A stretch of 64,000 bases of DNA from Alphaproteobacteria bacterium (GCA_964291675.2 OZ219866.1:2528001-2592000); one strand, 5' to 3'; shown: positions 17,471-44,280, counted from the stretch's first letter. Notes: generated from the letters alone by a model not told the origin. Made by a program: numbers and translations.

Positions 17471-18397
17471 ATGAAGGAGCGTGGTCCCTATCGCATCCCG
17501 TCGATCAGCGCGTTGATCGCCTTTGAGAGCGCCGCGAGAAAGGGCAGCTTTACCGGCGCCGCGGAAGAATTGCGCACTTCGCAATCCGCGCTCAGCCGCC
17601 GCATCGCCGCCCTGGAAGACCAGCTCTCGACCCGGCTGTTCGAACGTTCCAGGTCCGGCGTGACGCTGACTCCCGCCGGATTTCGTTTCCGCGATGCAGT
17701 CGTCGCGGGGCTCGGGGTCATTCAGGTCGGCACCGAGGAAGCCGCCGGCCGGCCGGAAACGGGAGACGTGGCGATCGCGTGTTCCCACGACGTGTCCCAG
17801 CTCGTGATGTTCCCGCGCCTCGGCGCGCTGCGGGAAGCGCTCGGCAGCGAGGTCGGGACACGCATCCTGATCCACCGGAGCTCGCCGCAATATCGACACG
17901 TCGAGCCGAACGCCGACATGGTCGTGACCTGGAGCGCCGATGACGCGCTTCCCGGCATCGCCGCCGGCGACGCGGCGGTGATCCTCAGAGAGGAAATACA
18001 GCCGATCTGTTCGCCGGAATATGCCGCCGCCCACGCGGAGATCGTCCGCGGGCCCGTTGCCGGTTGGGGGGCGTTGACCCTCCTCGACCTGTCCCAGCCC
18101 AATATGGGATGGACGTCCTGGTCCGACTGGTTCGAGAGCGCAGGAGGCCCGGCGCAGCCTGCTCGCTTCGAGCTGCTCGACAGCTACATTCAGGTGCTGG
18201 AAGCGACTGCCTGCGGGCGCGGCATCGCCATGGGCTGGCGCCACTTTATCGAGCGCTATCTCGATGCCGGCGCGGTCGTCGCGCTCGGCGGGGGATTTGT
18301 CGAATTCGGCAACAGGCTGGTCGCCGTTCTCACCGAGACCGGCCGCAACAACCCCAACGCCCGGCGATGCCTCTCGCTGCTCCGGCTGTCGGGGTAG
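17471..18397 (+). CDS. LysR-family regulator (GcvA-like)
   Basis: LIAFESAARKGSFTGAAEELRTSQSALSRRIAALE HTH; WSDWF and G.GIAMGW in the C-domain. Confidence 0.9.
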   Translation: MKERGPYRIPSISALIAFESAARKGSFTGAAEELRTSQSALSRRIAALEDQLSTRLFERSRSGVTLTPAGFRFRDAVVAGLGVIQVGTEEAAGRPETGDVAIACSHDVSQLVMFPRLGALREALGSEVGTRILIHRSSPQYRHVEPNADMVVTWSADDALPGIAAGDAAVILREEIQPICSPEYAAAHAEIVRGPVAGWGALTLLDLSQPNMGWTSWSDWFESAGGPAQPARFELLDSYIQVLEATACGRGIAMGWRHFIERYLDAGAVVALGGGFVEFGNRLVAVLTETGRNNPNARRCLSLLRLSG

Positions 18398-18490
18398 CGC
18401 GGACAAGCGGCGACGAAATCGACGGGTACGGGAAGAGTTGGGCGCCCGTTGCGAACCCGCCGGACTCCGCATCGCCCCGCCGAGACGGTC

Positions 18491-18796
18491 TCAGACCGCC
18501 CGGTCGCAATCGGAACGGTTGGCGGCCTCGGCCACGCCGGCCTCGATGACGCACAGACCCTCGACCACCGCATCGCGGAAACGGCAACCCGCTTCGGTGA
18601 GGCTCAGCCCCGACCGCGAGCGTTCGAACAGCCGGATCGACAGCTGTTTCTCGAGCCCCGCCACGCGGCTGCGGACCGCCGATTGGGAGATCCGCAATTC
18701 CTTGGCCGCGCCCGCGAAGCTGCCATTCCGCGCGGCGCTTTCGAACGCGATCAGCGCGCTTTCCGCAGGGATCCGAATTGAGCCTTTGTAAAGCAT
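18491..18796 (-). CDS. LysR HTH-only protein (paralog of 17471..18397), possibly a remnant
   Basis: 101 aa; RIPAESALIAFESAARNGSF...RLFERSRSGLSLT closely matches the N-terminus of the full-length neighbour; no effector domain. Confidence 0.7.
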   Translation of the reverse strand: MLYKGSIRIPAESALIAFESAARNGSFAGAAKELRISQSAVRSRVAGLEKQLSIRLFERSRSGLSLTEAGCRFRDAVVEGLCVIEAGVAEAANRSDCDRAV

Positions 18797-19099: not shown

Positions 19100-19408
19100 A
19101 TGGAACAAATCGACACATACCGGATCCCGTCCGAAGCCACGCTGATCGCGTTCGAGAGCGTCGCCCGGCTGGGCAGCTTCTCGCACGCCGCGGCGGAGCT
19201 GGGCACCGCCCGGTCCACGGTCATGCGCCGGGTCGCCGACCTCGAGCGGCAGCTTGCCACGCGGCTTCTCGAACCGTCCCGGATGGGCCTCGCCCCGACC
19301 GAAGAGGGCCGGCGCCTGTACGAAGCCGTCGCCAGGGGGCTGAGGATCATCGAGGAAGCCGTCGCCGAAGCCGACGCGCCGCCCACGGGTCGCCCGCCGG
19401 ATCAATAG
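19100..19408 (+). CDS. LysR HTH-only protein, possibly a remnant
   Basis: 102 aa; YRIPSEATLIAFESVARLGSFSHAAAELG...; stop overlaps the convergent tadG-like gene. Confidence 0.7.
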   Translation: MEQIDTYRIPSEATLIAFESVARLGSFSHAAAELGTARSTVMRRVADLERQLATRLLEPSRMGLAPTEEGRRLYEAVARGLRIIEEAVAEADAPPTGRPPDQ

Positions 19409-20994
19409 ATCCGCCTCACCGATCGAAGCTGACTCGCGATACTGGTGAACGCCGCCCTCAGGGTCGTCGCGTCGCTGTTGTTGAGGAAGGTGTAGGTTCC
19501 GGTTCGCTCGCCCTGGCTCGAGCATTCGGTGAGGGCGCTACCGAGGTCCCCGGACACCTGGCTCGGCGGCATCGCCGCGACCACGAAAATTTCGGAACCG
19601 GCAGCCTTGACGGAGGTGCATATCTCGGCGCGGTCGTACCCCATCCTGGTACGCGAACAATCCGCGTCTGCCTCGCCGCACTGCGTGTCCTTGCCGTCCG
19701 TGAGCAGCACGATCGCCTTGCGCACGGCGGGGCCCTGGTCCACCGGATGGGTGTTGTCGCCCCAGGCGTCCCGCCACGCCGGCGTGAGCAGCCTTTGTCC
19801 CCACAGCAGGCCCAGCCCGGAATGGGTCAGGCCGCCGCCCGGCACCATCGCGTTGATGTGGTCGACGATGTCCGTCCGTTCGGTCGAGAGCGGGAGCATC
19901 GAGGGTCGGTCGGCCGCGCATTCTCGCTGGGGATCCCGGTTTCCCAGCACGCGGAACGGCCTGGTGGGATGCCGCGGACCGTAGCAATATTGCAACCGGA
20001 GGTCGGAGGGCAGGGGATCCCCCAGGCAGGTATACGCCATATCGATGTCGGCGGGATAGATCGCCTGGGCGAACGCCTTTACCGAAGGATGATCGAACCA
20101 GTCCGCGGCCGACGTGAGGTCCGCGAGGTCGCCGGTCATCCTGTGTTCGTCGAAGCATCCCGCCCAGGCTTCCGGCGCATCGTCGGGCAAATCGTCGATG
20201 ACGGACGGCGGCGTGCAGGCGTCCCGGGGCGAGCACTGGTACGGAAAGCCGTAATAGCGCCTCCCCGGGTATACCGCCCAACTATTGGCGGTCCAGGTGG
20301 CCCGCAATGTCGGGTCCAGCCGCACCCACTGGTCCCACGGCACCACGCCCACCGCGATCCCGCTATCGGCGCTCGGCTGCAATACGTCGACCAGGTCGAT
20401 GGCGGCCTGTTTCACGATCGACATGCGGCTGTCGGAGTCCGCATACCCGACAACGGTGCCCGCCAGATTCCGCGACATGGAGATGCTGACGTCGATGGCG
20501 AGCACGACCTCCACGGTCGATTCGACGGTCTCCACGCCGGCCACGGACGTTATGGTGCCGGGCCCCCTGTAGTCGTAAAGCCAGCTCGATATGAGGGTCT
20601 TTCCGGTGTCCGCCGAGACGGTCGTGTTGACGACCATCAGATCCCGGTCCATGTCGAACGTCATGGCGATGTCCCGGGCGGTCATGTCCGCGTCGTTGAC
20701 GTTCCCGAGCACGTTCAGCACCGCGTATTTGCGCGCGAAGGACAGAACGCTGTCCTGCATGTCGTCGTCGCTCAGCGTGTCCGGCAGGCTGTTGAGCTGC
20801 AGGGTGGCCGCCATGGACGCGGCATCGGCCGCGCTCTTGAGGATGTCGCGCTGCCCGACGAGGTGGTTGTGGTCGATGATCAGCGCGCCGCCGCCCAGGA
20901 TCATGACGATGACCCCGGAGGCGGCGATGCTGGCCGCGCCGCCGCGCGTGTCTCGCAGGAACCGCTCGCTGATCGCCCTGATGGTGTGAAACAT
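19402..20994 (-). CDS. TadG/CpaL-like pilus protein with vWA domain, copy 1
   Basis: Prepilin-like RFLRDTRG|G plus TM, LKSAADAASMAA Tad motif, MIDAS DVSISM...LLTDG, Cys-rich insert. Confidence 0.82.
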   Translation of the reverse strand: MFHTIRAISERFLRDTRGGAASIAASGVIVMILGGGALIIDHNHLVGQRDILKSAADAASMAATLQLNSLPDTLSDDDMQDSVLSFARKYAVLNVLGNVNDADMTARDIAMTFDMDRDLMVVNTTVSADTGKTLISSWLYDYRGPGTITSVAGVETVESTVEVVLAIDVSISMSRNLAGTVVGYADSDSRMSIVKQAAIDLVDVLQPSADSGIAVGVVPWDQWVRLDPTLRATWTANSWAVYPGRRYYGFPYQCSPRDACTPPSVIDDLPDDAPEAWAGCFDEHRMTGDLADLTSAADWFDHPSVKAFAQAIYPADIDMAYTCLGDPLPSDLRLQYCYGPRHPTRPFRVLGNRDPQRECAADRPSMLPLSTERTDIVDHINAMVPGGGLTHSGLGLLWGQRLLTPAWRDAWGDNTHPVDQGPAVRKAIVLLTDGKDTQCGEADADCSRTRMGYDRAEICTSVKAAGSEIFVVAAMPPSQVSGDLGSALTECSSQGERTGTYTFLNNSDATTLRAAFTSIASQLRSVRRIY

Positions 20995-21275
20995 GATCCC
21001 GGTCGCTTTCCCGATCGCCGTGGGAGGGTTCCGGCCGGCCGCCCTCCGCCGCGCGGCGGGAGGAGCCCGTGCCCGGCCTTCCCGAGGGCGGGGACTGTCT
21101 GCCACGCGGCCCGCCGACGTCAATCCGGCACGCCCGGGGCGCGACCATATGTCTCACACGGGCGGCGCGCTTCCGGGGCGCGGCGCCCGGTGTCGGGCGG
21201 TCGGCGGTGGCAGCCCCGGGTTGCGCCGGGCGCCGTCGCCGACGCCGATGCGCCGCCCGAGGGTCGCCAGTCGGA

Positions 21276-22865
21276 TCAATAGACCCGCCGCACCGATCGA
21301 AGCTGCCTCGCGATATTGGTGAACGCCGCCCTCAAGGCCGTCGAGTCGCTGTTGTTGAGAAAGGCGTAGGTTCCCGGAAAGTCCCCCTGGCTCGAGCAAT
21401 CGGTGAGGGCGGTGCCGAAATCCCCTGACACCTCGCCGGGGGCCATCGCCGCGACGACGAAAATCTCGGAACCGGCGTCCTTGACGGCATCGCATGCGTC
21501 GGCGCGGTCGTAGCCTAGCCTGGTAGCGGAACAATCCGTGTTCCCGTTGCCGCATTGCGTGTCCTCGCCGTCCGTGAGAAGGACGATGGCCTTGCGCACG
21601 TTGGACGCCCGGTCCACCGGATGGGCGTTGTCGCCCCATGCGTCCCGCCACTCGGGCGTCAGCAGCCTTTGCCCCCACAGCAGGCCCAGCCCGGAATGGG
21701 TGTTGCTGCCGCCCGGCACCAGCCCGTCGATGTAGTCGACGATGTCCGTCTGCTCGGTCGAGAGCGGCAGTATCGAGGGCTTGCCGGGCTCGCATCTCCG
21801 CTGCGCGCCCATCCCGGAGCGCACGTGGGGCGAATTGCCGCGACCCGGAGGGCCGTAGCATTCCTGGCGCCGCAAGCTCACGGGCAGCGGCGCGTCCTGG
21901 CAATCGTACGACACGCCGTACTCGGCGGGATAAATGGCTTGGGCGAACGCCTGTTCCGAAGGGTGATCGAACCAGTGCGTCTCCGCCGTGATGTCCGCGA
22001 GGTCGCCGGAAATCCTCTGTTCGTCGAGGCAGCCCTCCCAGGCCGGCGCGCTCGCGGGCATTCTTGCGGTGGCGGAGGGCGGCGTGCAGGTTGCATGGGG
22101 CCGGCATGCGTAGGCGGCGCCGTAATGCCGCCGCCCCGGGAACGTCGCCCAGTTGTTGGCGGTCCAGGTCGCCCGCAATGCCGGATCCAGGCGTACCCAG
22201 AGGTCCCAGGGCACCACCCCCACCGCGATTCCGTTATCGACGCCCGGCTGCAGCACGTTCACCAGGTCGGTCGCGGCCTGTTTCACGATCGACATGCGGC
22301 TGTCGGGGTCGGCATGGCCGACATAGTCGCCGTCGAGGTCGCTATCCATCGAGACGCTGACGTCGATGGCGAGCACGACCTCCACGGTCGGTTCGACACT
22401 CTCCACGCCGGCCTCCGTCGTTATAGTGCCGGGCCCCGCGTGGTCGTAGACCCGGCTGGATAGGAGCGTCTTTCCGGTGCCCGCCGAGACGGTCGCGCCG
22501 ACGATCATCAGATCCCGGTCCATGTCGAACGTCATGGCGACGTCCTCGGCGGTCATGCCCGGGTCGTTGACGTTTCCGAGCACGTTCAGCTCGCCATATT
22601 TGCGCGCGAAGGACAGAACCCTGTCCCGCATGTCGTCGTCGCTCAACGTGTCCGGCAGGCTGTTGAGGCGCAGCGTGGCCGCCATGGACGCGGCATCGGC
22701 CGCGCTCTTGAGAATGTCGCGCTGCCCGACGAGATGGTTGTGGTCGATGATCAGCGCGGAGCCGCCCAGGGTCATGACGATGATCCCCGTGGCGGCGATG
22801 CTGGTGGCGCCGCCGCGCGTGTCTTGCAGGAACCGTCCGCCAATCGCCTTGATACAGTGCAACAT
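21276..22865 (-). CDS. TadG/CpaL-like pilus protein with vWA domain, copy 2
   Basis: Tandem paralog of 19402..20994; RFLQDTRG|G, DVSVSM, LLTDG, same C-terminal QLRSVRR(I/V)Y. Confidence 0.82.
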   Translation of the reverse strand: MLHCIKAIGGRFLQDTRGGATSIAATGIIVMTLGGSALIIDHNHLVGQRDILKSAADAASMAATLRLNSLPDTLSDDDMRDRVLSFARKYGELNVLGNVNDPGMTAEDVAMTFDMDRDLMIVGATVSAGTGKTLLSSRVYDHAGPGTITTEAGVESVEPTVEVVLAIDVSVSMDSDLDGDYVGHADPDSRMSIVKQAATDLVNVLQPGVDNGIAVGVVPWDLWVRLDPALRATWTANNWATFPGRRHYGAAYACRPHATCTPPSATARMPASAPAWEGCLDEQRISGDLADITAETHWFDHPSEQAFAQAIYPAEYGVSYDCQDAPLPVSLRRQECYGPPGRGNSPHVRSGMGAQRRCEPGKPSILPLSTEQTDIVDYIDGLVPGGSNTHSGLGLLWGQRLLTPEWRDAWGDNAHPVDRASNVRKAIVLLTDGEDTQCGNGNTDCSATRLGYDRADACDAVKDAGSEIFVVAAMAPGEVSGDFGTALTDCSSQGDFPGTYAFLNNSDSTALRAAFTNIARQLRSVRRVY

Positions 22866-23070: not shown

Positions 23071-25179
23071 TCAGAAGTGATACCCTCCGTTGCGCCTGGA
23101 TGCCGGCGCCCGGGATTCGTCGGAGGCATTCCCGGGTTCCACCAGGCGGGCGGTGACGATCACGATCAGCTCGAGTTCGTCGGACCGGGCCGAGCGGTTG
23201 GCGAACAGCATGCCGAAACCCGGCACGTCCTTCAGCACCGGCAGGCCGGCCTCCCGGGCGTTCGACGCGTTGCGGAAGAGCCCCGCGATGACGATCGATT
23301 CGCCGTTGGCGACCTCGACCGTGGTTTCCGCGCGGCGCACGTTGATGACCGGGATGCTGATCCCGGAGATCTGCACCGACCGGTTGATCGACGGCTCCGA
23401 CACTTCGGGCCGGACGTGCAGCGAGATCCTGCTCGAATCGATGACCGTCGGCACGAAGTCCAGCAGGATCCCGTATTTCTTGTATTCGAACAGGAGCACC
23501 CCGTCGTCGAACCCCGTGGGGAGCGGAAATTCCCCGCCCGAGAACAGCGAGGCCGGTTCCCCGGAGATGGCGGTCACGTTGGGCCGCGCCAGGACGTTGG
23601 CCAGCCCGGCCCGGGAGAGCGCGTCGATCACACCCGCGATCCGGGAGGTTCCCGTGTCCCGGCCGAGATACAGGAGCGGCGACCGCTGACCTTCGAAAAT
23701 GGTCTGCGCGGCGTTCACGACGCGTCCGATGCGGAACCCGAACAGGCTGTTGTTGCGCAGCCCGAAGGCTTCCCAGTTGATCCCGAGATCCTCGGAGATC
23801 GAGCGCTGGACTTCCGCGATCTGCACTTCCAGGTTCACCTGCTGCGCGCCGGTGACGCGCAGTTCGTTCTCCACCGGCGTGTTCTCCGGCAGAGACGCGA
23901 CCGCGAGCCGGACGGCGCGCGCCGCCAGCGCGGCGGAATCGACCTCGCCGGTCAGCGCGACCCCGTTCGCGAAGGGCAGGGCGATCACGCCTCCGAGTGC
24001 CGGCTTGCCGGCCAGCGCCGCGCGAAGCGGGCCCAGATCCAGCTCCACGGATATGACCCGGTCCTGGACCTCGCCGTCGGTTCCCACCACGGTGAAGGAG
24101 GTCTTTCCGATGCTCTTGCCGATGATGTACAGCATCTGGGGCGACAGGAGCTGGACATCGGCGATGGCCGGGGAGGCGATCACCACCGATGCCGCATCGC
24201 CGTCGAGCCCGAGACGCAGACCCTGCCTCGGGGCGATCGTCAATCGGCTCCGCGGGTCTCCGTCAGACGCTTCGGCGGGCTCTTCGACCGGTTCGGCGGC
24301 GGTCTCCGGCGCGCTCCGCGGGGCCTCGCGATGGGTCAGCGCAGCGAGGCGGAGCGCAAGACCCGATGCCAACGGCAATCCGATTCCGTCCGCCGCCGGC
24401 GGCCAGCCGGTTTCCGGCAATCGCAGCGCCATGCCGGGCGCGAAAACGAGCGCCAGGGAATAGTTGCGGGGGTCCCGCCGCGCCTGCTCGATCAGGCGGG
24501 ACAGTGCGCCGGCGTCGTCATCCAGCCAGAAGGACGGCTCGTGCTCTTCGAACACCCGGGCGGCGTCGTCGTGGCGCCCGGCGGCGATCAGCATGCGCAC
24601 GAGATTCGCCGCGATCCGGGGATGGTCGGAGGACAGGCGGAGCGCCTCGTCGAAAGCGGCCTCGGCCGCATCCAGGTCGTTGTCGAGCGCGGCGGCGACC
24701 GCGACGGCGTTGGCGATCCACGGCGTCAGCGGCAGGTTCCCGGCGCTGTCACGCGCATCCCGCAGGTACCGCCGGGCCGCGCCGATCTCGTTGCGCGCGA
24801 GCGCCGCCCGCCCGGCGCCGAGCAACGCCTCCGCCCTTATTGCGGGAGCGTTCTCCGCCAGGGCAGCGGATCTCGCGAAAAGACGTTCGGCGTCGGGGTA
24901 GTCGCCGGAGCCGAACGCGACATAGGCGAGGCCGAGGATCGGTTCCGGCGCGCGTTCGAAGCGTCTGGCGAGGGACAGGTACTGCCTGCGAGCCGCCTCG
25001 GGCTGGCCGGCGGAAAGGGCGGCGGCGGCGATCGACAGGTTGTTGCGCAGGATGTTTACGCGTTCGACGCCGTCCTCCGGCGACTGCCGGGATGCGCAAC
25101 CGGCGAGCGCAGCCAGCGCGAGAATCATCACGGCCGTCCGCATGCCGCTCGCGGACGATGGAAGCAATCTCTGGATCAT
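23071..25179 (-). CDS. TadD-like TPR lipoprotein fused to a CpaC/RcpA-type secretin
   Basis: Lipobox LAALAGC, then TPR-like helices, then pilus N-domain (VVIASPAIADVQ...IGKSIGKT) and secretin core (QVNLEVQIAEVQR, LARPNVTAISGEPAS..SGGEFP, GLPVLKDVPGFGMLF, ELIVIVTARLV); start may be 25143. Confidence 0.85.
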   Translation of the reverse strand: MIQRLLPSSASGMRTAVMILALAALAGCASRQSPEDGVERVNILRNNLSIAAAALSAGQPEAARRQYLSLARRFERAPEPILGLAYVAFGSGDYPDAERLFARSAALAENAPAIRAEALLGAGRAALARNEIGAARRYLRDARDSAGNLPLTPWIANAVAVAAALDNDLDAAEAAFDEALRLSSDHPRIAANLVRMLIAAGRHDDAARVFEEHEPSFWLDDDAGALSRLIEQARRDPRNYSLALVFAPGMALRLPETGWPPAADGIGLPLASGLALRLAALTHREAPRSAPETAAEPVEEPAEASDGDPRSRLTIAPRQGLRLGLDGDAASVVIASPAIADVQLLSPQMLYIIGKSIGKTSFTVVGTDGEVQDRVISVELDLGPLRAALAGKPALGGVIALPFANGVALTGEVDSAALAARAVRLAVASLPENTPVENELRVTGAQQVNLEVQIAEVQRSISEDLGINWEAFGLRNNSLFGFRIGRVVNAAQTIFEGQRSPLLYLGRDTGTSRIAGVIDALSRAGLANVLARPNVTAISGEPASLFSGGEFPLPTGFDDGVLLFEYKKYGILLDFVPTVIDSSRISLHVRPEVSEPSINRSVQISGISIPVINVRRAETTVEVANGESIVIAGLFRNASNAREAGLPVLKDVPGFGMLFANRSARSDELELIVIVTARLVEPGNASDESRAPASRRNGGYHF

Positions 25180-25690
25180 GGGCTCTTCGCACCCGATTTG
25201 GTTGAATACCCCGGCGCATTCCGGCTCGCACTCGAAACGGGCCCGGGATTCGACGGCTAAAGGTGGGCGCTGCGGCTGCCATGTTCAACTGATGATAGAA
25301 ATTCTTCGGTCGGCGCCAGGATTTCGGGCTGCGAGGCAGCGGCCGCCCGAGCGGCCGGCGCATCCCCGAACTGCAATCGGGGATCGTATGTCCGAAAGCC
25401 CCGCCGCCGGGCCGCTCCACGGCCGAATCCGGGTCTTCCTTTTCCGCGAGGATCGCCGGGGCGGGTCCCCGCGATCCGTCCGGCGGTCATCACGGATGCG
25501 CGAGGCGCACGGGCGGTGGCATTGACACCGTGCCGGCAGTGACAACATTCAGCGCACATCCGAGCCCGGAATGCGGGAGCGAGGATCGCTTGACAAACCT
25601 TGTCGCCACGTCGCCCGGCGGCACTATTGCGGATCGCGCCGTCCGGTTGTCGTTCGACCCGGCGCGCGACGGCGCTGTTGGAGGTGTGTG

Positions 25691-26107
25691 TTGCTTGAGT
25701 TCTGGCGCCGGCATTGCCGGCCTTGCGTTGCAGCGGCGCTTGTTCCCGCATCGTTCCTCGGCGGATGCGTAACTCAGCTTGTCGTGCACGATCCCTATTT
25801 CTCCCCTTTCGCGCCGGCGGGGCGGGACAACGCCGCGGATGCGCGGCAGGCATTGACGGACGGTCGGTCGGTGCAGGCCCTGCAGGCGGCCTGTGCCCCG
25901 GCCGGGTCGGGCGCGGAGGCGACCGACCGCGCGGAGCTCGATGCCGCGGGCGGGCGCAAGGCGCTCGAAGAGCTGTGCGCCGCCTGGCGCGGCCGTCCGC
26001 CGGAATCGCACGGCGCGATCTCGAATGCGCACCGGCGATGGGTTGAGGACAACCGTCGTCGGTTGCCCTCCCTGTCCGCGACCGCCGCTTCCGCCGGCGG
26101 CGGCTGA
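25691..26107 (+). CDS. Putative lipoprotein heading the tad operon (CpaD-like position)
   Basis: GGAGG at 25680-25684 before TTG 25691; signal ending LGGC; two further Cys. CpaD homology not demonstrable by eye. Confidence 0.5.
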   Translation: MLEFWRRHCRPCVAAALVPASFLGGCVTQLVVHDPYFSPFAPAGRDNAADARQALTDGRSVQALQAACAPAGSGAEATDRAELDAAGGRKALEELCAAWRGRPPESHGAISNAHRRWVEDNRRRLPSLSATAASAGGG

Positions 26108-35736: not shown

Positions 35737-37484
35737 GATCCGGCTCGGTCATCCTCGGCGTCTCGGTCTCCGCTGTCCTGCTGGCCGCGGCTGCCTATCT
35801 GTACCTGTTTGCCCATGACGGCAGCAGCCGGCACTACCGCAAGTCGATCGATCTCGTCCGGCAGATGCAGGTCCTGTCCACCGGGTGGAGCATGGAGGTC
35901 ACCCGCGTCAGGGCCGACGCGCTCGCCGACTTCGACTCGCTGGCCGGCTTCATCCCCCGGGTGGCGCGGTTGAAGGTGAGACTCGCCCAAAGGGCCCAGC
36001 GCATACCCGACCTGCCCGATCGCATCGCCGGGGAAATCAACGCCTTCATCAGTGCCATCGAAGCGCAGGAAGAGCGCATCGAGCGGTTCAAGACCGGCTA
36101 TGCCGTGGTGCGGAATTCCAGGCGCTATCTTCCGCTTGCCGCCGCCAGCGTGTCGCGGCAGGCCGCGTCGTCCGGCAACGCCCGTCTGGTCGAGGCCGTT
36201 CCGCCCCTGGTGCGCGATGTGAACCTGTATGTCGCGACACCGACCCTGACGGCCAAGAACCGCCTGAAGGTCGAGATCGACGAGCTCCGCAAGACGAACG
36301 TCCGCTATCCGCCGCCATTGGCCAACGCGCTGGGAAACCTGTTGGACCACGCGGAGGTGCTGGTCGACAGGCAGCGGCGGACCGAGGAGCTCTTCGCGGA
36401 GGCCACGTCCGACGAGCTCTCCCGGTTCGCCGACCAGCTGACCGTCAATCTCGAATTCGAGCTCGGAAGGGCAGCGGTCCAGGCCAGGTACTACGATCAC
36501 GGAATCGTGGCCCTGTTCGGCGCGCTCGCCCTGTTCTGGATCGCGTTTGCGCTGCTCTACCAGCTCCGCGGCCGCCGCAAGGCTGTCCAGACCGACCCGG
36601 CGCAAGGGGTCGCCGGCGAGGCCGATGCCTTGGCCGCGCCCCAGCCGCAGCCGGTGGCCCGCTTCGCGCCGGACCGCTCGCGGCTCGACGCGGCGGCGCC
36701 GGTCGCGCGGCAACCGGTCGGCCTTCCGGCGCCCAAGGACCCCGGCTCCGTGCTGCAGAACGGGTTCGTCGTGAAATGCGTCGCCGGCATCCTCGCCTCC
36801 TCGGCCGAAGAGATCGACGACCGCATGGAATTCCTGCAAAAGACGCACGAGCGAATCCGCCACGCCCTGCACCACGGCGATCTGCCTCCCGATCTGACGG
36901 CGGAAGCCGGCCTGGACGAGGAGTTCGCCGCGATTCCCGCCATAGCTTCCAGCGTGCGGCAAAGGTTGACCGGCATCGCCAGTCTCGCGAAACGCCTGGA
37001 TGTGTTCTCGGACACGCAGGCCAACCATGTCGACCGGGCGATGATCGACGTCAACGCCTGCATCGAGGGCGTGATCGCAGCGGCCGGCTCGGCGTCCAAC
37101 GCGACATTCATCACGAACCTCGGCGAAGTTCCCCGGATACTGGCCTGCCAATCCGACCTGCAGATGCTGGTCGCGGAGCTCGTCGAGAACTCGTTGGCCG
37201 CCGTGCAGGGCCAGGCGGACAAGAAGGGCATCGTCAAGATCGACACCGCCCGCAAGGACGGAGAGGTCATGATCACCGTCATCGACAACGGTGTGGGCAT
37301 CTCCGCCGACCGGCAGAGAAGCATATTCAAGCCGTTCTACACCTCCCGGGAGGGCGCCCTCGGCATCGGCCTGCCGCTGGCCGGCCATCTCGTCGGAAAG
37401 TACCGGGGAACCATCAAGGTGAATTCGCTTCCGGGCCAGGGTACCGTGGCCCGTATCAGCCTGCCCGCCGGGACGGCACGATGA
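35733..37484 (+). CDS. DAHL-like sensor domain + HATPase_c histidine-kinase-like protein with degenerate H-box
   Basis: Two TMs flanking a helical domain (IERFKT..AVVRNSRRYLP resembles DAHL); N/G1/F/G2 boxes ELVENS, DNGVGI, IFKPFYT, GIGL. Confidence 0.75.
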   Translation: MRSGSVILGVSVSAVLLAAAAYLYLFAHDGSSRHYRKSIDLVRQMQVLSTGWSMEVTRVRADALADFDSLAGFIPRVARLKVRLAQRAQRIPDLPDRIAGEINAFISAIEAQEERIERFKTGYAVVRNSRRYLPLAAASVSRQAASSGNARLVEAVPPLVRDVNLYVATPTLTAKNRLKVEIDELRKTNVRYPPPLANALGNLLDHAEVLVDRQRRTEELFAEATSDELSRFADQLTVNLEFELGRAAVQARYYDHGIVALFGALALFWIAFALLYQLRGRRKAVQTDPAQGVAGEADALAAPQPQPVARFAPDRSRLDAAAPVARQPVGLPAPKDPGSVLQNGFVVKCVAGILASSAEEIDDRMEFLQKTHERIRHALHHGDLPPDLTAEAGLDEEFAAIPAIASSVRQRLTGIASLAKRLDVFSDTQANHVDRAMIDVNACIEGVIAAAGSASNATFITNLGEVPRILACQSDLQMLVAELVENSLAAVQGQADKKGIVKIDTARKDGEVMITVIDNGVGISADRQRSIFKPFYTSREGALGIGLPLAGHLVGKYRGTIKVNSLPGQGTVARISLPAGTAR

Positions 37485-38800
37485 GGGCCTGGCGGCTCCG
37501 CCGCGCCAGCCTGCGGGCGCAGCTGGTTTCCAACGCCGTGCTCGGCATCGCGGTTCCCGCCGCGCTCGCGGGCGGGGTCGCGCTGTTCCTGTTGACCGAT
37601 CACCTCGCCGTCATCGACGCGGGCCTGGACAGGAGCCGGCAGGCGCTGACCCGGGAAATCGCCCGCTCCGAGCTCGCGGTCCGGGCGAGCGACACCGCGC
37701 GGCAAATCGACACGTTCCTGATCAGCCGAATCCTGGAGGCGAAGCTCTGGGCGTCGTCCCCCATCGTCATCGATGCCGCGCGCTCGGCCGCTCGCAAGCA
37801 CCGGGCCGAAGGGCTGACGAACGCGGCCATCGCGGATGTCGAGCGCCGGTTTCCGACGCGCAAGACCCTGGGGCTCTGGCCGCGGGCGGACTCCCATCTG
37901 CGTCAACAGGTCGCGGAGTCGCCGTATTTCGCTGAGATATTCTTCACCGACCGCAACGGATTCAACGTGGCAATGACCAACCGGACGAGCGATTTCGTGC
38001 AATCCGACGAGAGCTGGTGGAAGAGCGCCTGGGCGCATGGCGCGTCGGTCGGCGAGCTCCGGTACGACGAATCCGCCGGCGTCTGGTCGGTCGACATTTC
38101 GCTCCGTATCGACTCTTCGGACGGCCAAACTCCGCTGGGCGTCATGAAGATGGTTCTGGCGATCGAGGCGGTCCAGAAGATCGCCGATCTCGCCGCGGGA
38201 GACGTTTCCGCCGGCCGGGTCGTGGTGGCCAGCGGTCTCGGCGCGCTGATCGCCGAGACCGCCTCCGGCCACGATCCGCAGCGAATCATGAGCCGCGACA
38301 TCGACTTGCGGGAGCAGGGCGAGCCGTCCACGCGGGCCGGCTTCGACGGAGACCGGACCGGATTCGCGGTCGGCGAGAACTGGTTGACGGGCTACTCCCG
38401 GACCGGCGGGCACGAGGTCTACGCCCGGACGGTCGGCGGGTTCTCCGGCCTCGAGTGGATCGTCATCGTGCAAAAGCCGGTGGCTGCGATCCATGAGCCG
38501 ATCGCGGCGCTGCGCAGTATCGAGGACGCGCTGCGCGACTGGCGCCTGATACTCGCCGTCGCGTTCGGCGCCACGATCGTCCTCTGCACGGGCATGGCCA
38601 TCGTGCTTTCCGTCGCCTCCGCGCGCCGATACGCATCGGCGCTCGCCGCGATAAGCGAGATGGCCGATCGCGCGGCGCGGGGTGCGCCCGCAAGCTGGCC
38701 CGTCATCGAGGACCCCGAGGAAATCGTTCGCGTGAACGACGCGGTTCGCCGGCTGAGCGAGCCGCGCGACCCGTTTCCGTTACCCGGCGATGCACGCTAG
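37481..38800 (+). CDS. Cache-domain membrane protein with a HAMP-like tail and no output domain
   Basis: ATG 37481 overlaps the upstream stop; TM-[EIFFTDRNGFNVA..TSDFVQSDE.WW..YDESAG]-TM, then PEEI....AV.RL and stop. Confidence 0.72.
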   Translation: MRAWRLRRASLRAQLVSNAVLGIAVPAALAGGVALFLLTDHLAVIDAGLDRSRQALTREIARSELAVRASDTARQIDTFLISRILEAKLWASSPIVIDAARSAARKHRAEGLTNAAIADVERRFPTRKTLGLWPRADSHLRQQVAESPYFAEIFFTDRNGFNVAMTNRTSDFVQSDESWWKSAWAHGASVGELRYDESAGVWSVDISLRIDSSDGQTPLGVMKMVLAIEAVQKIADLAAGDVSAGRVVVASGLGALIAETASGHDPQRIMSRDIDLREQGEPSTRAGFDGDRTGFAVGENWLTGYSRTGGHEVYARTVGGFSGLEWIVIVQKPVAAIHEPIAALRSIEDALRDWRLILAVAFGATIVLCTGMAIVLSVASARRYASALAAISEMADRAARGAPASWPVIEDPEEIVRVNDAVRRLSEPRDPFPLPGDAR

Positions 38801-38860: not shown

Positions 38861-39352
38861 ATGGTAGGCGCCGGTTCGTCGGTGGTGTGGCTGGTGGAGT
38901 GGGGTGCATGCGCGTTGTTCATCGCCGGGGCGATAACCGACCTGCGTTGGCGCCGGGTGCCCAACACGATTCCCGCCCTTCTGATCGGGCTCTTCGCGCT
39001 GCACGCGGCGATCGGCCAGATCCGCCCGCCGGGCGCGTTGTGGACGCATCTGGCGATCGGCCTGATCCTGCTCTGCGCCGGGTTCGCGCTGTACTTGACC
39101 GGACGGTTCGGTGCGGGCGACGCCAAGCTGATCGCGGTCGCCGGGCTGTGGGTCGGACCGGCCGATCTCAGCTTCTTCCTGTTCGGCATCGCCCTGGGCG
39201 CTTTCACTCTCTGCGCGTTCGCCATGCTGCCGATGCCCGTGGCGCGGCGCTGGCGGTCGGCGTTGCCCTTCGCGGTGGCGATCGTACCGCCGACCGTTGC
39301 CGTGTTGATCCCGCGCACGCTGTCGCAACCTCTTCACTATCCCCTGTCATGA
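38861..39352 (+). CDS. cpaA: Prepilin peptidase CpaA/TadV (A24 family)
   Basis: Catalytic Asp motifs ITDLRWRRVPN and GAGDAKL; C-terminal LPFAVAI. Confidence 0.88.
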   Translation: MVGAGSSVVWLVEWGACALFIAGAITDLRWRRVPNTIPALLIGLFALHAAIGQIRPPGALWTHLAIGLILLCAGFALYLTGRFGAGDAKLIAVAGLWVGPADLSFFLFGIALGAFTLCAFAMLPMPVARRWRSALPFAVAIVPPTVAVLIPRTLSQPLHYPLS

Positions 39353-39432: not shown

Positions 39433-40392
39433 ATGCACAGATACCGAAACCTGATCTTCCTGGGGCTGCTGGCCGCGATCCCGTTGATCGGCGCGATCGT
39501 CCTGGCCAACGTCTTCCTGTCGGGGGAGGAGGCCGGCCCGGTCCGCTCGGCGCGGCAGCCCCAGCAACAACCGGCGCCCAAGGCGCCGATTACCCGCAAG
39601 GTCGTCGTGGCCGACCGCAACCTGCCGGTGGGCACGCTGCTCGGGGACGGGGATCTGGGCACGCTGGACATGGAGCAGGGCAAGATTCGGCGCGGCCACA
39701 TCGTGCTGGACGGCGCCAGGACCGTCGATGCGTTACGCGGCTATGCCATGCGCCAGCCGCTGTCGCCCGGGGCCCCGCTGACCTGGTCGGCGATCGTCGG
39801 CCCGGGGCAGCGCGGGTTTCTCGCCGCGGCGTTGCGGCCGGGCACGAGGGCGGTGACGATCCAGCTCGGCAAGGGCACGCGCCATGCCGGGCTGGTCGAT
39901 CCGGGCGACCGGGTGGATGTGATCCTGACCGCGAGGCTGCGGCTCCCCGACGGCACCAAGACCGTGTTCACGCGCACCATCATGGAGGATGTGCGCGTGG
40001 TCGCGGTCGACCGCCGGGTCGAAAACGCCGACGCGCCGAAGAAGAAGGGCGAGAGACTCAAGCGCACCGAGATCATCACCGCCACCCTGGAGGTGGCCCC
40101 CGCCCAGGCCGGTCGCCTGGCGCTCGGCGCGCACGAGGGCACGCTCTCCGTCGCGGTGCGCTCGCTCGCCTCGGCCCCGCGGCACGGCGGCAACAGGGCC
40201 GTCGATCTGGAACAGTTGATGGCCTCGCCCGAGGACCAGGGAGAGGCGGTGGTCGCGAGCAGCGGGCCGGGGGTGGGAGGGGGCAGTCTGGAGCCGTGGA
40301 AGAAGGTTCGCGTGTTCCGCGGAGACAAGGTGAGCGTGGAAAAGTTCGCCGATCCGTCGCGCAGCGGGGATAGCGAGGTCCTCGGGCAGTAG
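39433..40392 (+). CDS. cpaB: Flp pilus assembly protein CpaB/RcpC
   Basis: N-terminal TM; SAF domain VVVADRNLPVGT; LRPGTRAVTI, GLVDPGDRVDVIL, DVRVVAVD. Confidence 0.92.
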   Translation: MHRYRNLIFLGLLAAIPLIGAIVLANVFLSGEEAGPVRSARQPQQQPAPKAPITRKVVVADRNLPVGTLLGDGDLGTLDMEQGKIRRGHIVLDGARTVDALRGYAMRQPLSPGAPLTWSAIVGPGQRGFLAAALRPGTRAVTIQLGKGTRHAGLVDPGDRVDVILTARLRLPDGTKTVFTRTIMEDVRVVAVDRRVENADAPKKKGERLKRTEIITATLEVAPAQAGRLALGAHEGTLSVAVRSLASAPRHGGNRAVDLEQLMASPEDQGEAVVASSGPGVGGGSLEPWKKVRVFRGDKVSVEKFADPSRSGDSEVLGQ

Positions 40393-40452: not shown

Positions 40453-42927
40453 ATGAAATTGCAGATTGCCGAAGCTTTTGCCGCCGCGCTCGAGGCGCTC
40501 CCGGAAGCGATACGCGCGCGGCTGGACGGTGGCGAAACGCTCGACTGGGATGCGTTGGAGAGTGCCCGGATTTCCCGGACGCTCGGCGAGGCGGTCCGCG
40601 ACCGCGATCGCCTGCCCGAACCGGTGGAGACGCTGGTGCAACGGCTGGTCCGGGATGTCGGCGTCGTGCCGGAGGATGTCGTCCGCGGCCTGGAGCGCCA
40701 GTGCGCGGCCAGCGCCTGGATCGACTGGGTCTCGGTCGAACCCGAAGGCGAGACCTATCGGATCCGCAACGACCGGAGCGGCGAAGTTCACCTCGGGATC
40801 CCCGCCGAAACGGTCGCCGGCTACGCGATCCTCGCCATGGAGCTGGCGACCGCGGTGCACCGTGCCCGCGAGCGCTGGCTGGATAGCGGGGATCGCTACT
40901 GGGCGGCGCCCGGCGATGCGCTGTGCCCGCTGTCGCGATGCTCGGTTCGGATGAGCGCCGCCCTGCGCAGCCCGCCGGAGTCCGGCCCGGAGCCTACGAC
41001 GAACGACCTGGCCAGGATGCTGGAGACCGCGTGGAACGGCCAGGAGCTCCCGCTGCGCGCCGAGCTGGCGGCCGCTGCCCCGTCGATCGCCGGGCATGCC
41101 GTCCACGCGCCGCGCAGGCGCCGCCTTGCGCCGATGACCGGCTATCGACTGCACGCCTGCGACCCGGAAGAGCTCCTCTGGCTGTGCGCCCTGGCCGAGC
41201 GGGCCGGTTTGGGCGCGCCCGGCGACGATGCGGAGAAACCGCCGCAAGGAGACGTGGGGGCGCCGATCGCCGTTGGCGCGGCCGGGCCGAACGAACCGGC
41301 CGGCGACCTGGAGGCGGCGTCGGAACCGAGGGGGTCGGAGCCCGCCGGCGAGGCGTCGAATTTGCGCGGGAACCGCACCGGCGCCGGGGACGGAGACCCG
41401 GCCGGTGGCGAGCCGGCGAACGAGCCGGACCCGCCGGAGCCGGCAACGGCGAGGGACGCCGACCGCGCGGCGCGACCGGGCGGCGAGGCGTCGAATTGGC
41501 GCGGGAGCCGCACCGGCGCCGGGGACGGAGACCCGGCCGGGGGCGAACCGACGAACGAGCCGGACCCGCCGGAGGTCGCAACGGCGAGGGACACCGACCG
41601 CGCGGCGCGACCGGGCGGCGAGGCGTCGAATTTGCGCGGGAACCGCACCGGCGCCGGGGACGGAGCCCCGGCCGGTGGCGAACCGACGAACGAGCCGGAA
41701 GCGCCGGAGCCGGCAATGGCGAGGGACACCGACCGCGCGGCGCGACCGGGCGACGAGGCGTCGATGTGGCGCGGGAGCCGCGCCGGCGCCGGGGGCGGCG
41801 ACCCGACCGGTGGCGAGCCGGCGAAGGAGCCGGACCCGCCGGAGCCGGCAACGGCGAGGGACACCGACCGCGCGGCGCGACCGGGCGGCGAGGCGTCGAT
41901 GTGGCGCGCGAACCGCGCCGGCGCTCGGGACGGAGACCCGGCCGGGAGCGAACCGACGAACGAGCCGGAGGCGCCGAAATTCGGAAGCCCGGGCGAGACC
42001 GATCGCATGGCGAGATCGGAGGACGAGGCGGTTCTCCTCGACATGCAGGCATTGGAAGAGCGGATCGGAGCGGAGACGGACCGCAGGCTGCAGCTCGGCA
42101 CCGGCCCCGGCGAGATCGTCCTCGCCCGGCAATTCGACGAGCTCGAGAGCGCCGCGAGCCGGCTGCCCGGGCCGGTCAGGCAGCGCATGACGGCGTGCTA
42201 CGGTCTCAACGCGATGCAGGCGCTGATCCGGCTGCAGGACCCGCATGAGTGCGCCGCCCTCAGGGCCGAGGTGGAAGCTGCCGATGCAGGGGGCCGCGCG
42301 CCGCGCTGGCTGGAGGAGCTCGCCGCCACCCTGCTGATCGACGCCGGTGCCGAGACACGGGACGGCAGGCGCACGGCCGGGCTGCGCCTCGACGCGACGG
42401 AAGAGCCCGACGCCCGCTACCTGGTCACCGAAATGGGAACCGGCGCCCAGGGCAGCTTCTCGCTGGCCGGCCTTATGGAGCAGGTGCATCTCAACCTGGC
42501 GTTCGCGCGGATCGCGTGGAAGGCGCTGACGGTGCTCCGCAATGCCGGAAAGGAGGGCGGCTGGGCCTTGCTCGAAGGGACGAACCGGAACGTCGAATTC
42601 CCCTCCCAGGAGGGCGAGACGCTGGAAGCGGCGCAACAAATCGGAGTCGTGCTGGACCGTTTCCTCGACGCGCGGTCCGATCCCGGCGGATCGCCGAGCA
42701 GCCTGCAGCAGGCCGCGATGGCGGCGGATGCATTGGCGGAGGTCGGTCCCACCATGCGCGCCGCCGCCGGCTGGCCGGGCCCGCCCCCCGATTCGGGGCT
42801 CCCCGGAGATGTCGCGGCGATGGTCGACATGGCGGAAGCGCTGCAAGGAAACGTCCGGGCGATCTCCAACCGTCTGATCGCCGGGCGGATGGCCGGGTTC
42901 AAGGAAGGCCGGGAAATTCAGGCCTAG
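40453..42927 (+). CDS. Hypothetical protein with a central 45-aa tandem repeat
   Basis: AAGGAG RBS plus ATG; 824 aa; no recognised motif in the flanking regions. Confidence 0.7.
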   Translation: MKLQIAEAFAAALEALPEAIRARLDGGETLDWDALESARISRTLGEAVRDRDRLPEPVETLVQRLVRDVGVVPEDVVRGLERQCAASAWIDWVSVEPEGETYRIRNDRSGEVHLGIPAETVAGYAILAMELATAVHRARERWLDSGDRYWAAPGDALCPLSRCSVRMSAALRSPPESGPEPTTNDLARMLETAWNGQELPLRAELAAAAPSIAGHAVHAPRRRRLAPMTGYRLHACDPEELLWLCALAERAGLGAPGDDAEKPPQGDVGAPIAVGAAGPNEPAGDLEAASEPRGSEPAGEASNLRGNRTGAGDGDPAGGEPANEPDPPEPATARDADRAARPGGEASNWRGSRTGAGDGDPAGGEPTNEPDPPEVATARDTDRAARPGGEASNLRGNRTGAGDGAPAGGEPTNEPEAPEPAMARDTDRAARPGDEASMWRGSRAGAGGGDPTGGEPAKEPDPPEPATARDTDRAARPGGEASMWRANRAGARDGDPAGSEPTNEPEAPKFGSPGETDRMARSEDEAVLLDMQALEERIGAETDRRLQLGTGPGEIVLARQFDELESAASRLPGPVRQRMTACYGLNAMQALIRLQDPHECAALRAEVEAADAGGRAPRWLEELAATLLIDAGAETRDGRRTAGLRLDATEEPDARYLVTEMGTGAQGSFSLAGLMEQVHLNLAFARIAWKALTVLRNAGKEGGWALLEGTNRNVEFPSQEGETLEAAQQIGVVLDRFLDARSDPGGSPSSLQQAAMAADALAEVGPTMRAAAGWPGPPPDSGLPGDVAAMVDMAEALQGNVRAISNRLIAGRMAGFKEGREIQA
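41347..42010 (+). repeat. About five in-frame 135-bp tandem repeats
   Basis: Unit starts at 41347, 41482, 41617, 41752 and 41887 (exact 135-bp period); last copy degenerate. Confidence 0.92.
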
Positions 42928-43122
42928 CCCGGATTTCCCGCCGCCACCGCGGCCTGTGCGGCAGATTCGCCCTGCCGCCGCGCGTGGGGTCGGAACCGTG
43001 CACACCGAGCTCGAACCGCGCGTTCGATGCCATAATCAAATTACACTATGTCGATTCGATATGACTACGCTAAAATCGGGGCCGTGCCGCATATTTTCCC
43101 CGATACGCGCTCAGGATAGGCG

Positions 43123-44280
43123 GTGAACCCGTTGCCGAGTTCCTCTTCCCCTCGCCCGCGAGCAGGCCGCATGAGGCGGGCCCTGGCCGCGTGCTGGGTG
43201 TCGGCGGCGGTCGTCTGGCCCGGCGCGGCGCCCGCCGCGGACGGGGTCGACGAGGTATTGGCGCTGGTCCAGCAGGAGCGCTACGCGGAAGCGCGCGAGA
43301 TGATCGACCCGCTGCTCCGGCGCGACCCCGACCAACCGCGCGTGCGGCTGATCGACGGTATCCTGACGGCGCGGGAGGGACATCCCACGGAGTCGATCGC
43401 CATATTCGAGCGACTCCGCGACGACCACCCCGACATGTTCGAGCCGTACAACAACCTTGCGGTGCTGTACGCCCAGCAGGACCGGCTCGATGACGCGCTC
43501 GGGGCCCTGCTGGCCGCGTCGGAACGCAAGCCCGACGCCGTCGTCTACGCCAATCTCGGCGATATCTACACGCGTCTCGCGCGACGCGCCTACGAGCGCG
43601 CCCGCGATGTCCGCACCCGCGGCGGCGACGCTGCGGAACCGTCCGGACCCAGCGCTTCGATTCCGCTGCCCGCGGCGAAGCCGGTCGAGCCCGCTCCCGA
43701 ACCCGGACCGGCGGCGGAATCGGCGGACGGGCCCGCGCCCGAAGCGGAGACCGGGCCGGCGCGGGCGATCGTGGCGACGGGGTCCGAGCCCGTTTCCGAC
43801 GACGCGTTGAGCGGAGAATGCGTGCGCGCCGGAAGCTTCAAGGACCGGCGCTCGGCGACCGAAGCCGCTTCGTGGATGCAGAACGAGGGCGCCGAGATCA
43901 TCGACATCGTGCACGAAAACCGGCGGGACGGCAGCAGGCACTGGGTCCACCTGGCCCCGGCGGCGAGCCGCGATGCGGCCCGCAGGACGGTCCGCGAGCT
44001 TCGCGGCAAGGGCGTCCGGGATGTCGCGATCCTGCGCCGGGACTCCCGGCGCAACGTGGTTTCCCTCGGGGTCTACGGCAACAAGGGCAACGCGAACCGC
44101 CGGGTCGCCCAGATCGAGAAGCTGGGCTACGAGGTCGAGATCACGGCTTCCGGCAAGACCTCCGGCGAGTATGTCGTGCGGGCGCGCGTCGGCACCGCCC
44201 GGCCGGCCTTCGACGGCGCCTGGAAGGCGCGCTTCGCCGGATACTCCATCCGCTACGTCGACTGCCCCGCGCTCAACTGA
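43123..44280 (+). CDS. Secreted TPR + SPOR-like domain protein
   Basis: Signal peptide; TPR EPYNNLAVLYA...YANLGDIY; Pro/Ala linker; SPOR-like HWVHLAP...VSLGVYGNKGNA; start may be ATG 43171. Confidence 0.72.
   Translation: MNPLPSSSSPRPRAGRMRRALAACWVSAAVVWPGAAPAADGVDEVLALVQQERYAEAREMIDPLLRRDPDQPRVRLIDGILTAREGHPTESIAIFERLRDDHPDMFEPYNNLAVLYAQQDRLDDALGALLAASERKPDAVVYANLGDIYTRLARRAYERARDVRTRGGDAAEPSGPSASIPLPAAKPVEPAPEPGPAAESADGPAPEAETGPARAIVATGSEPVSDDALSGECVRAGSFKDRRSATEAASWMQNEGAEIIDIVHENRRDGSRHWVHLAPAASRDAARRTVRELRGKGVRDVAILRRDSRRNVVSLGVYGNKGNANRRVAQIEKLGYEVEITASGKTSGEYVVRARVGTARPAFDGAWKARFAGYSIRYVDCPALN

Follow-up and report, generated by a model that had tools for sequence, protein, structure and literature searches.

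Tad pili mediate adhesion, the formation of biofilms and the colonisation of hosts in many bacteria; which signals switch them is known for few species only. In Pseudomonas aeruginosa, Flp/Tad pili are controlled via transcription by PprA-PprB, a classical pair of sensor kinase and response regulator. TorT-TorS and LuxP-LuxQ are examples of sensor kinases whose signal comes via a periplasmic protein bound to them, and the gene orders of the Caulobacter cpa and Aggregatibacter tad loci served as the classical standard of comparison in this study. In Campylobacter jejuni, docA, which encodes a di-haem cytochrome c peroxidase (CCP), lies directly upstream of docB, the gene of the receptor Tlp10; both genes are reported to be needed for chick colonisation, and DocA to make no contribution to peroxide resistance (PMC3156733). 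A second report assigns a DAHL domain to Tlp10 (PMC9796306). Here, we analysed a stretch of 64,000 nucleotides from an alphaproteobacterium (called the window for simplicity) which encodes a complete Tad/Flp set at positions 19402-44280, organised in two divergent units, and in which a CCP gene followed by the gene of a DAHL sensor kinase is placed between tadC and cpaA. This region is a real and complete Tad/Flp pilus locus of a distinct subtype, and the CCP-DAHL sensor pair is an integral part of it. The presence of a haem peroxidase and a membrane sensor in the operon suggests that pilus assembly responds to extracellular peroxide or to the extracellular redox state. As the explanation of the whole we rather favour a horizontally spread Tad subtype in which a two-protein periplasmic sensor sets pilus assembly, a view built on the observed gene content, translational coupling, conserved linkage and an interface signature.

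Genes were called by third-position G+C (GC3) and then scanned with Pfam and NCBIfam; because the window has a G+C content of about 70%, raw lists of open reading frames (ORFs) were crowded. The minus-strand unit consists of two TadG-like vWA genes and the gene of a 702-residue TPR-secretin lipoprotein. On the plus strand, the order is orf178, CpaE1, two TadE-like genes, Flp, CpaE2, CpaF, TadB, TadC, CCP, kinase, Cache-like gene, CpaA, CpaB, orf824 and a TPR+SPOR gene. All genes of the near-complete Tad set claimed by the original prediction, which had been made from the nucleotide sequence of this stretch, were recovered in this way. The core Tad machine genes scored far over their Pfam cut-offs; the matches to Flp, TadE, vWA, CpaE and dCache_1 are under the curated cut-offs, and the same positions are kept in related loci. 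The window shares Flp, CpaA/TadV, CpaB/RcpC, the secretin, CpaF/TadA, TadB and TadC, and probably CpaE/TadZ, TadE/F-like and TadG-like proteins, with the Caulobacter cpa and Aggregatibacter tad loci. Unlike these, it is split into divergent units, encodes two CpaE paralogues, a TadD-like TPR lipoprotein fused to the secretin, orf824, a TPR+SPOR protein and orf178, and carries the CCP, kinase and Cache-like genes between tadC and cpaA. No description of this architecture was found in the literature searched. New features are the embedding of the pair in Tad operons, a modelled interface with its signature residues, a decaying H-box in the kinase and a conserved receiver in CpaE2. The locus type puts a haem-enzyme-based sensor within a pilus assembly operon and recurs in several phyla.

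Linkage of the sensor pair to Tad genes

The junctions around the pair are tight. On the plus strand, tadC (33780-34748; T2SSF, 65.4 bits) ends with TAG at 34746-34748, and the ATG of the CCP gene follows at 34750, one base apart (TAGCATG). The CCP gene (34750-35736, plus strand; CCP_MauG, 195.7 bits), which encodes a predicted periplasmic di-haem CCP of a DAHL-linked subfamily, overlaps the start of the sensor kinase gene (35733-37484, plus strand; DAHL 93.8 and HATPase_c 68.4 bits) by an ATGA at 35733-35736. The stop of the kinase gene overlaps the start of the Cache-like gene by a second ATGA at 37481-37484. Judged from these junctions, the tadC, CCP, kinase and Cache-like genes are translationally coupled. 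A consensus scan of the plus strand detected no terminator-like site between 25645 and 43121, which is weak evidence, and the genes cpaE2-cpaF-tadB-tadC-ccp-kinase-cache-cpaA-cpaB-orf824-TPR/SPOR probably form one long operon.

Full-length orthologues of the kinase with 51-89% identity were present in 10 of 11 genomes of the same genus, four of which contained a second match. The 29 genomes that were compared from other genera within the family or order had no full-length orthologue. For the 13 same-genus kinase copies (10 genomes), 24-40 kb of surrounding sequence were fetched. The order CpaE2-CpaF-TadB-TadC-CCP-kinase-Cache-CpaA-CpaB-orf824 was kept in 13/13 of these loci; the Cache match, split in genome G001, was present in all of them, and CpaA of G003, under the 60-bit print threshold, was found at 50% identity. 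Every CpaF copy found in the genus adjoins a kinase copy (14/14 including that of the window), and genome G006 had neither a CpaF match nor a full-length kinase match. By this conservation, the cassette is not a chance insert in the Tad locus.

To extend the comparison, a kinase alignment was searched against 185,579 species genomes, which yielded 79 family loci from Defluviicoccus, other Alphaproteobacteria, several Gammaproteobacteria, Binatia and one member of Thermodesulfobacteriota. The titles of all 79 records begin with 'MAG', and it is therefore likely that no bench study of the Tad-linked version of the pair exists. The CCP gene directly precedes the kinase gene in 78 of the 79 loci, the remaining one (L088) starting inside the kinase; with a stricter 300-nt rule the count is 75/79. 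CCP identity to the copy in the window is 62-93% and stays in this range even in loci whose kinase reaches only 31-40%. Two or more Tad components were found in 26/26 alphaproteobacterial, 13/34 gammaproteobacterial, 16/18 Binatia and 1/1 Thermodesulfobacteriota loci, i.e. Tad genes stand beside the pair in 56 of the 79. The surroundings follow at least three different gene orders: tadC-CCP-kinase and then cpaA in alphaproteobacterial and some gammaproteobacterial loci; TPR-CCP-kinase-TadE-TadG-Flp-secretin-CpaE-CpaF-TadB-TadC in Binatia; and CCP-kinase-X-CpaA-CpaB-secretin-CpaE in four gammaproteobacterial loci, where the Tad genes are distant (29-47% identity). In a plasmid collection searched by tblastn, the kinase had matches to its CA domain only, and no record covered 80% of the query.

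The ATPase gene cpaF (31392-32801, plus strand; CpaF/TadA, T2SSE 205.6 bits) is present in a single copy in the host genome. The CpaFs linked to the pair are 64-97% identical to that of the window across four phylum-level groups, whereas the CpaFs of same-order genomes lacking the kinase are only 45-61% identical to it. A quick CpaF phylogeny with SH-aLRT support set the two kinds apart: nine CpaFs from kinase-less genomes and the reverse-strand CpaF of L068 formed a starred clade (support 98), separate from the linked CpaFs. Two outgroup rows of this tree (L120 and L125, branch lengths 1.7-2.0) are probably in a wrong frame and were disregarded. The pattern fits horizontal spread of the locus type. 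It also fits the spread of a whole island in which a sensor pair functionally unrelated to the pilus was inserted once and travels along, as all linked CpaFs lie on one side of the starred branch; many gammaproteobacterial loci have the pair without nearby Tad genes, and the other DAHL loci had no Tad matches in the 1.5 kb of flank covered. However, a passenger of this kind does not readily account for a pair that stays inside or beside Tad genes in three different gene orders, is translationally coupled to tadC, and shares its presence and absence with CpaF within the genus; we regard it as quite improbable. With respect to the original prediction, the distinct Tad subtype and the integral place of the peroxidase and sensor genes, which are indeed linked to tad genes in related genomes, were borne out, whereas its alternative tip adhesins and its view of the insert as a three-gene unit were not (see below).

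Beyond Tad loci, DAHL proteins are encoded in 66 of 401 sampled genomes of Pseudomonadota and in none of 14 control genomes; the host of the window has a single one. A CCP gene (40-58% identity at the protein level) was located directly upstream on the same strand in 29 of the 30 best DAHL loci, the 30th being cut by a contig end. Ten DAHL proteins were scanned for their outputs, of which six contained HisKA (typically as DAHL-PAS-HisKA-HATPase), three were full-length with HATPase but without HisKA, and one was cut. As judged from these loci, the invariant core is a CCP followed by a DAHL protein. The pair in the window fits the DocA-DocB type in that the CCP gene is upstream, the two genes overlap by ATGA, and CCP residues Q224, N231 and R306, introduced below, are present. 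It differs from DocB/Tlp10, a chemoreceptor, in its output, a DHp-CA transmitter whose His is poorly conserved, and in its position inside a Tad operon. The CCP-DAHL pair is a member of a widespread module. A CCP-DAHL (DocA-Tlp10) complex or a Tad-CCP locus was not proposed anywhere in the literature searched, to which the original DocA and Tlp10 papers did not belong.

The peroxidase and its modelled contact with the DAHL domain

By sequence comparison, the CCP of the window belongs to the bacterial CCP (bCCP) family and is closer to solved bCCPs (9qdt, 4e-89; 1iqc, 5e-77) than to MauG (about 1e-24). Across 57 sequences there is no variation in either haem motif (C76/C79/H80 and C219/C222/H223), in W119 or in M299. 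We take M299 to be the Met ligand of the second haem and W119 to be the Trp between the haems. The protein is the only full bCCP encoded in the host genome. As it looks catalytically ordinary and has no second full bCCP beside it in the genome, it could be a plain periplasmic detoxifier which is merely co-expressed with the kinase or regulated by it, and which forms no complex. Yet neighbourhood with a DAHL gene in 78/79 and 29/30 loci across phyla, irrespective of the output of the sensor, would not be expected from such an enzyme, nor would the modelled complex and the interface residues described below, and the Campylobacter homologue DocA is reported to make no contribution to peroxide resistance (PMC3156733). 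Overall, we consider plain detoxification an unlikely role.

Some features of the CCP sequences were recorded alongside. In the loop at residues ~93-104, 1iqc has a His ('sIGHkw') where the CCP of the window and 9qdt have a Val. In classical bCCPs in the resting state, this His is presumably a ligand of the peroxidatic haem; if it is, the DAHL-linked CCP subfamily may need no reductive activation. In most Binatia-type loci (L062, L072, L073 and others) the CCP ORF comprises 402-419 residues as compared to ~330 elsewhere, and in L072 the ORF runs ~85 residues beyond the CCP match, so that this CCP has a C-terminal extension. The L064 kinase is interrupted by an in-frame stop at residue 390, and the CCPs of L050 and L086 each have one two to three residues ahead of their ends; decay or errors of assembly may be the cause, or the true stops may lie slightly earlier.

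The sensor part of the kinase is a periplasmic DAHL domain (PF19443; 93.8 bits against a cut-off of 38), modelled as helices at residues 31-254 between two transmembrane helices. Residues 36-332 of the CCP, its mature form, were modelled together with residues 30-258 of the kinase, its DAHL domain, using our own 57-row alignments, from which four pairs were left out owing to an in-frame stop near the CCP end (L050, L086), a stop in the kinase (L064) or an X (L100), and two more (L056, L093) because a second CCP copy had been picked. The complex reached ipSAE values of 0.81, 0.81 and 0.82, whereas the best of three controls reached 0.02; the pLDDT of the partners was 89 and at least 95% of the contacts were common to the runs. 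The ipSAE pass mark, which is attained by 58 of 80 solved complexes and by 2 of 110 mismatched pairs, is only a rough guide when own alignments are used. No match to the DAHL region was found among PDB sequences or among the Foldseek matches listed, and the pass is therefore unlikely to be the memory of a solved complex.

In the model, the CCP side of the interface is centred on residues 215-240 around the second CxxCH motif (C219-H223), and the kinase side comprises residues 64-78, 117-136 and 198-209. The kinase has 19 invariant residues in its periplasmic part, and ten of them are among the 28 at the interface. The CCP side was checked in 57 family CCPs, 30 other DAHL-linked CCPs and six CCPs without a downstream DAHL gene, the latter being a small sample: Q224 was present in 87/87 linked and 0/6 unlinked sequences, N231 in 87/87 and 1/6, and R306 likewise in 87/87 and 1/6. 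Q224 and N231 are absent from the two solved CCPs 9qdt and 1iqc as well. The model thereby proposes CCP residues Q224, N231 and R306 and kinase residues D66, D68, R118, K120 and H206 as candidates for the contact between the two proteins. The original prediction tied adhesion to periplasmic sensing, a putative link which the strong complex model and the interface signature back. As in TorT-TorS and LuxP-LuxQ, a periplasmic protein encoded beside the kinase would be the real detector, and the sensor domain is all-helical; unlike in these systems, a haem enzyme takes the part of the solute-binding protein. What they share is the logic alone, and no sequence relation of the sensor in the window to TorT-TorS or LuxP-LuxQ was found. 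A CCP-DAHL complex could also explain the DocA puzzle, i.e. a peroxidase that matters for colonisation and not for peroxide resistance.

The protein that follows the kinase could offer a different source of signal. The Cache-like membrane protein (37481-38800, plus strand) has transmembrane segments and no output domain; its dCache_1 match is 22 bits against a cut-off of 45 and covers model positions 3-239 of 240. With its gene coupled to that of the kinase by the ATGA overlap, it could add ligand sensing to a DAHL domain which would itself sense small molecules directly, leaving the CCP accessory or unrelated. For Tlp10, direct binding of small ligands by the DAHL domain has been reported (PMC9796306). 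Such a sensor would, however, leave unexplained why a CCP gene is found almost universally upstream of DAHL genes and why the modelled CCP interface takes in 10 of the kinase's 19 invariant residues in the periplasm, and the Cache-like gene is missing from most lineages (it was present in 14/26 alphaproteobacterial, 3/34 gammaproteobacterial and 0/18 Binatia loci). We hold direct ligand sensing in place of the CCP to be improbable; direct sensing and sensing through the CCP are not mutually exclusive. Of the three-gene insert of the original prediction, the CCP-kinase core is invariant, while the third gene is limited to certain lineages, and its distribution makes the Cache-like protein a fairly probable lineage-specific accessory. 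In 23 gammaproteobacterial loci (e.g. L060:11701-12900), the kinase gene is followed by that of a membrane protein of ~399 residues which belongs to no Pfam family and stands in place of the Cache-like gene; BLASTP detected no similarity between the two proteins.

Kinase output and a possible receiver in CpaE2

The kinase is predicted to consist of a transmembrane helix, the periplasmic DAHL domain, a second transmembrane helix, a disordered linker and the DHp and CA domains. In the model (pLDDT 84.7), the linker spans residues 286-334, the DHp hairpin residues 337-381 and 393-430, and the CA domain residues 436-578; Foldseek aligned the latter two with the DHp-CA parts of ZraS, HK853, CckA (E ~1e-12) and DivL. 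The ATP-binding boxes N486, D518-G522 and G544-L547 are invariant. Pfam gave no HisKA match in the kinase of the window. Aligned with HisKA-bearing DAHL kinases, the H-box falls on 373, so that H372-E373, part of a T-H-E-R motif, lies at this site or one residue from it, and the usual spacing of 102 residues to HATPase_c agrees within a few residues. S356, which had been considered as the H-box on account of motif likeness, was ruled out by this alignment and spacing in favour of 372/373. From these residues, the copy in the window may autophosphorylate.

A candidate recipient is encoded in the same operon. CpaE2 (29548-31392, plus strand; TIGR03815 48.9 bits, cut-off 154) is a probable CpaE/TadZ paralogue with a Pro/Ala-rich N-terminus, a receiver and a ParA/MinD-like domain, and is 35% identical to CpaE1. 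Receiver residues D243, D293, S/T322 and K343-P344 are kept without exception wherever the 39 homologues have a residue at the position. The N-terminal Pro/Ala-rich region extends over ~240 residues and contains internal repeats. In both CpaE paralogues, the Walker A motif is devoid of lysine; its glycines, its serine and its two threonines are kept in 38-39 of 39 CpaE2 homologues.

The mechanism that we propose runs as follows. The exported di-haem CCP would dock onto the all-helical DAHL domain via the face around its second haem motif, that of the electron-entry haem, as placed by the complex model. The kinase would in this way read the turnover of peroxide or the redox state of the haem, rather than merely accompany detoxification, and the signal would cross the membrane to the DHp-CA transmitter. 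Its likeliest target, we infer, is the receiver of TadZ/CpaE2, through which the kinase could set when or where pili are assembled. A more far-reaching version, which we put forward only tentatively and think doubtful, is that DAHL receptors are obligate two-protein haem sensors with the CCP as the real detector, that the signal passes directly to TadZ/CpaE2, and that assembly, not transcription, is switched by oxidants. If it were true, oxidants from the host or from a surface would switch pilus assembly, and the need of Campylobacter for both DocA and DocB would be explained. The arrangement resembles PprA-PprB in that a sensor kinase is encoded beside the tad locus; unlike PprA-PprB, the locus in the window has no response-regulator gene, and its sensor has a haem-protein partner.

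A number of findings weigh against a CCP-based sensor that sets pilus assembly. With regard to the detector, the CCP has every sequence feature of an ordinary active peroxidase, the score of the complex is the model's own confidence and derives from our own alignments, and Tlp10 is reported to bind ligands by itself, as described above. With regard to the pilus, 23 of the 79 family loci are without Tad genes (at most 10 kb were covered on each side, and five of the 23 span less than 6 kb); the pair in L060 and L098, accompanied by a familyless gene of 399 or 381 residues, lies amid unrelated genes; and among the 30 other DAHL loci, none had TadC, CpaA or CpaF matches within the flanks of 1.5 kb that were covered. 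With regard to the output, the Response_reg match of the CpaE2 receiver amounts to only 14 bits in Pfam, both lysines are missing from the CpaE2 Walker A motif, and a stand-alone response regulator was not seen at the locus. Finally, the H-box column contains His in only 8 of 74 family kinases, and Gln in 28, Pro in 10 and Asn in 9, for which reason phosphotransfer cannot be the general output of the family. In this respect the family is similar to DivL pseudo-kinases (PDB 4q20, a Foldseek match), in which the DHp-CA fold is kept and the phospho-acceptor His is dispensable (66 of 74 family members are without it). Unlike DivL, the copy in the window has His372-Glu373, invariant ATP-binding boxes and an unrelated sensor part.

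Remaining genes of the locus

The left flank begins with a full-length LysR-type regulator (17471-18397, plus strand; Pfam HTH_1 75.4 bits, LysR_substrate 41 bits), which is kept in G009, G010 and G001. It is followed by two HTH-only LysR-like genes, HTH1 (18491-18796, minus strand; 101 residues, HTH_1 67.4 bits) and HTH2 (19100-19408, plus strand; 102 residues, HTH_1 58.1 bits). Pfam found no LysR substrate-binding domain in either, and by domain content both count as LysR relatives with an HTH alone rather than as full LysR-type regulators. HTH1 and the N-terminus of the LysR next to it share 67% identity; at the position of HTH2, G001 has a full-length LysR. The dN/dS of HTH1 was 0.09 versus G009 and 0.18 versus G010, that of HTH2 0.30 and 0.41 against two relatives. 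Since these values (0.09-0.41) are within the range of the neighbouring genes (0.16-0.46), HTH1 and HTH2 look like kept genes and not like debris. HTH-only LysR genes had been predicted on both flanks; they exist, but both are on the left, and the right end is formed by the TPR+SPOR gene.

The minus-strand unit comprises two TadG-like vWA proteins (copy 1, 19402-21123; copy 2, 21276-22865; weak VWA and VWA_2 matches of ~21 bits), which are 71% identical to each other, and a TPR (TadD-like) lipoprotein fused to the CpaC/RcpA secretin (23071-25179; pil_N 54.6 bits, Secretin 130.4 bits, BON). TadG homologues are present in the Tad loci of relatives in one copy each (one copy and a fragment in G010). 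As the tandem is unique to this genome, the idea that the locus can use alternative tip adhesins has no comparative support. The predicted TPR-secretin fusion is real: TPR families (residues 48-215) and the secretin lie in one ORF of 702 residues with the lipobox LAGC. The loci of Binatia, and some of those of Rhodospirillales, encode the TPR and secretin parts in two separate genes.

The plus-strand unit starts with orf178 (25571-26107), a small conserved ORF with a lipobox-like FLGGC motif, which is found in relatives by tblastn (35-64% identity) and belongs to no Pfam or NCBIfam family. It is followed by CpaE/TadZ paralogue 1 (26287-27282; 331 residues, TIGR03815 28.9 bits, cut-off 154), TadE-like pseudopilin 1 (27401-28276; TadE 20.3 bits, under cut-off), TadE/F-like protein 2 (28116-28901) and the Flp pilin (29065-29295; Flp_Fap 26.5 bits, cut-off 32.2), whose place is kept in relatives. 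For both TadE-like genes, the true start is probably later than called; in the case of the first, relatives align from about residue 56-71. A 15-bp tandem repeat (3.8-4.9 copies, 27999-28071) is located in the C-terminal part of the TadE1 ORF. TadE/F-like protein 2 has no Pfam match and is 50-81% identical in the genus loci and 26-40% identical in Binatia, where it adjoins TadG; TadE and TadG-like genes are kept beside Flp and the secretin in relatives. TadB (32801-33763; T2SSF, 57.2 bits) precedes tadC, and the prepilin peptidase CpaA/TadV (38861-39352; Peptidase_A24, 52.8 bits) and CpaB/RcpC (39433-40392; RcpC 89.7 and SAF 33.7 bits) follow the Cache-like gene.

The repeat orphan of the original prediction corresponds to orf824 (40453-42927, plus strand), an 824-residue protein in whose gene a 135-bp repeat occurs 4.7 times (41346-41976). 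The repeat encodes a disordered 45-residue unit and joins two mutually similar domains. In the model, the N- and C-terminal domains are confident and have a similar order of secondary structure, and the linker has a pLDDT below 50. No family was found in Pfam or NCBIfam, residues 1-265 had no usable match in the protein atlas, and the whole model (the domains were not folded singly) had no Foldseek match in the PDB at E <= 0.001. The best hits of a wide VIA-align search were generic helical bundles (Z 7.8) covering residues 680-823 only. Sub-domains of orf824, the CpaE2 N-terminus, orf178 and TadE2 were submitted to Pfam separately and gave nothing over noise. In the 14 alphaproteobacterial loci scored, orf824 follows cpaB as a single ORF of 597-751 residues. 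The 135-bp repeat varies greatly among relatives, and in G010 ~2.7 kb separate the conserved N and C domains.

The TPR+SPOR protein (43123-44280, plus strand; TPR_19 45.6 bits, SPOR 42.3 bits) is kept in alphaproteobacterial Tad loci. Downstream of the Tad locus, at 46319-49439 on the minus strand, the gene of a fusion between a WD40 beta-propeller and a C-terminal cytochrome c (435 residues) adjoins that of a 603-residue protein with a cytochrome b561 domain; they constitute a second redox pair, which is kept in G010 and G001.

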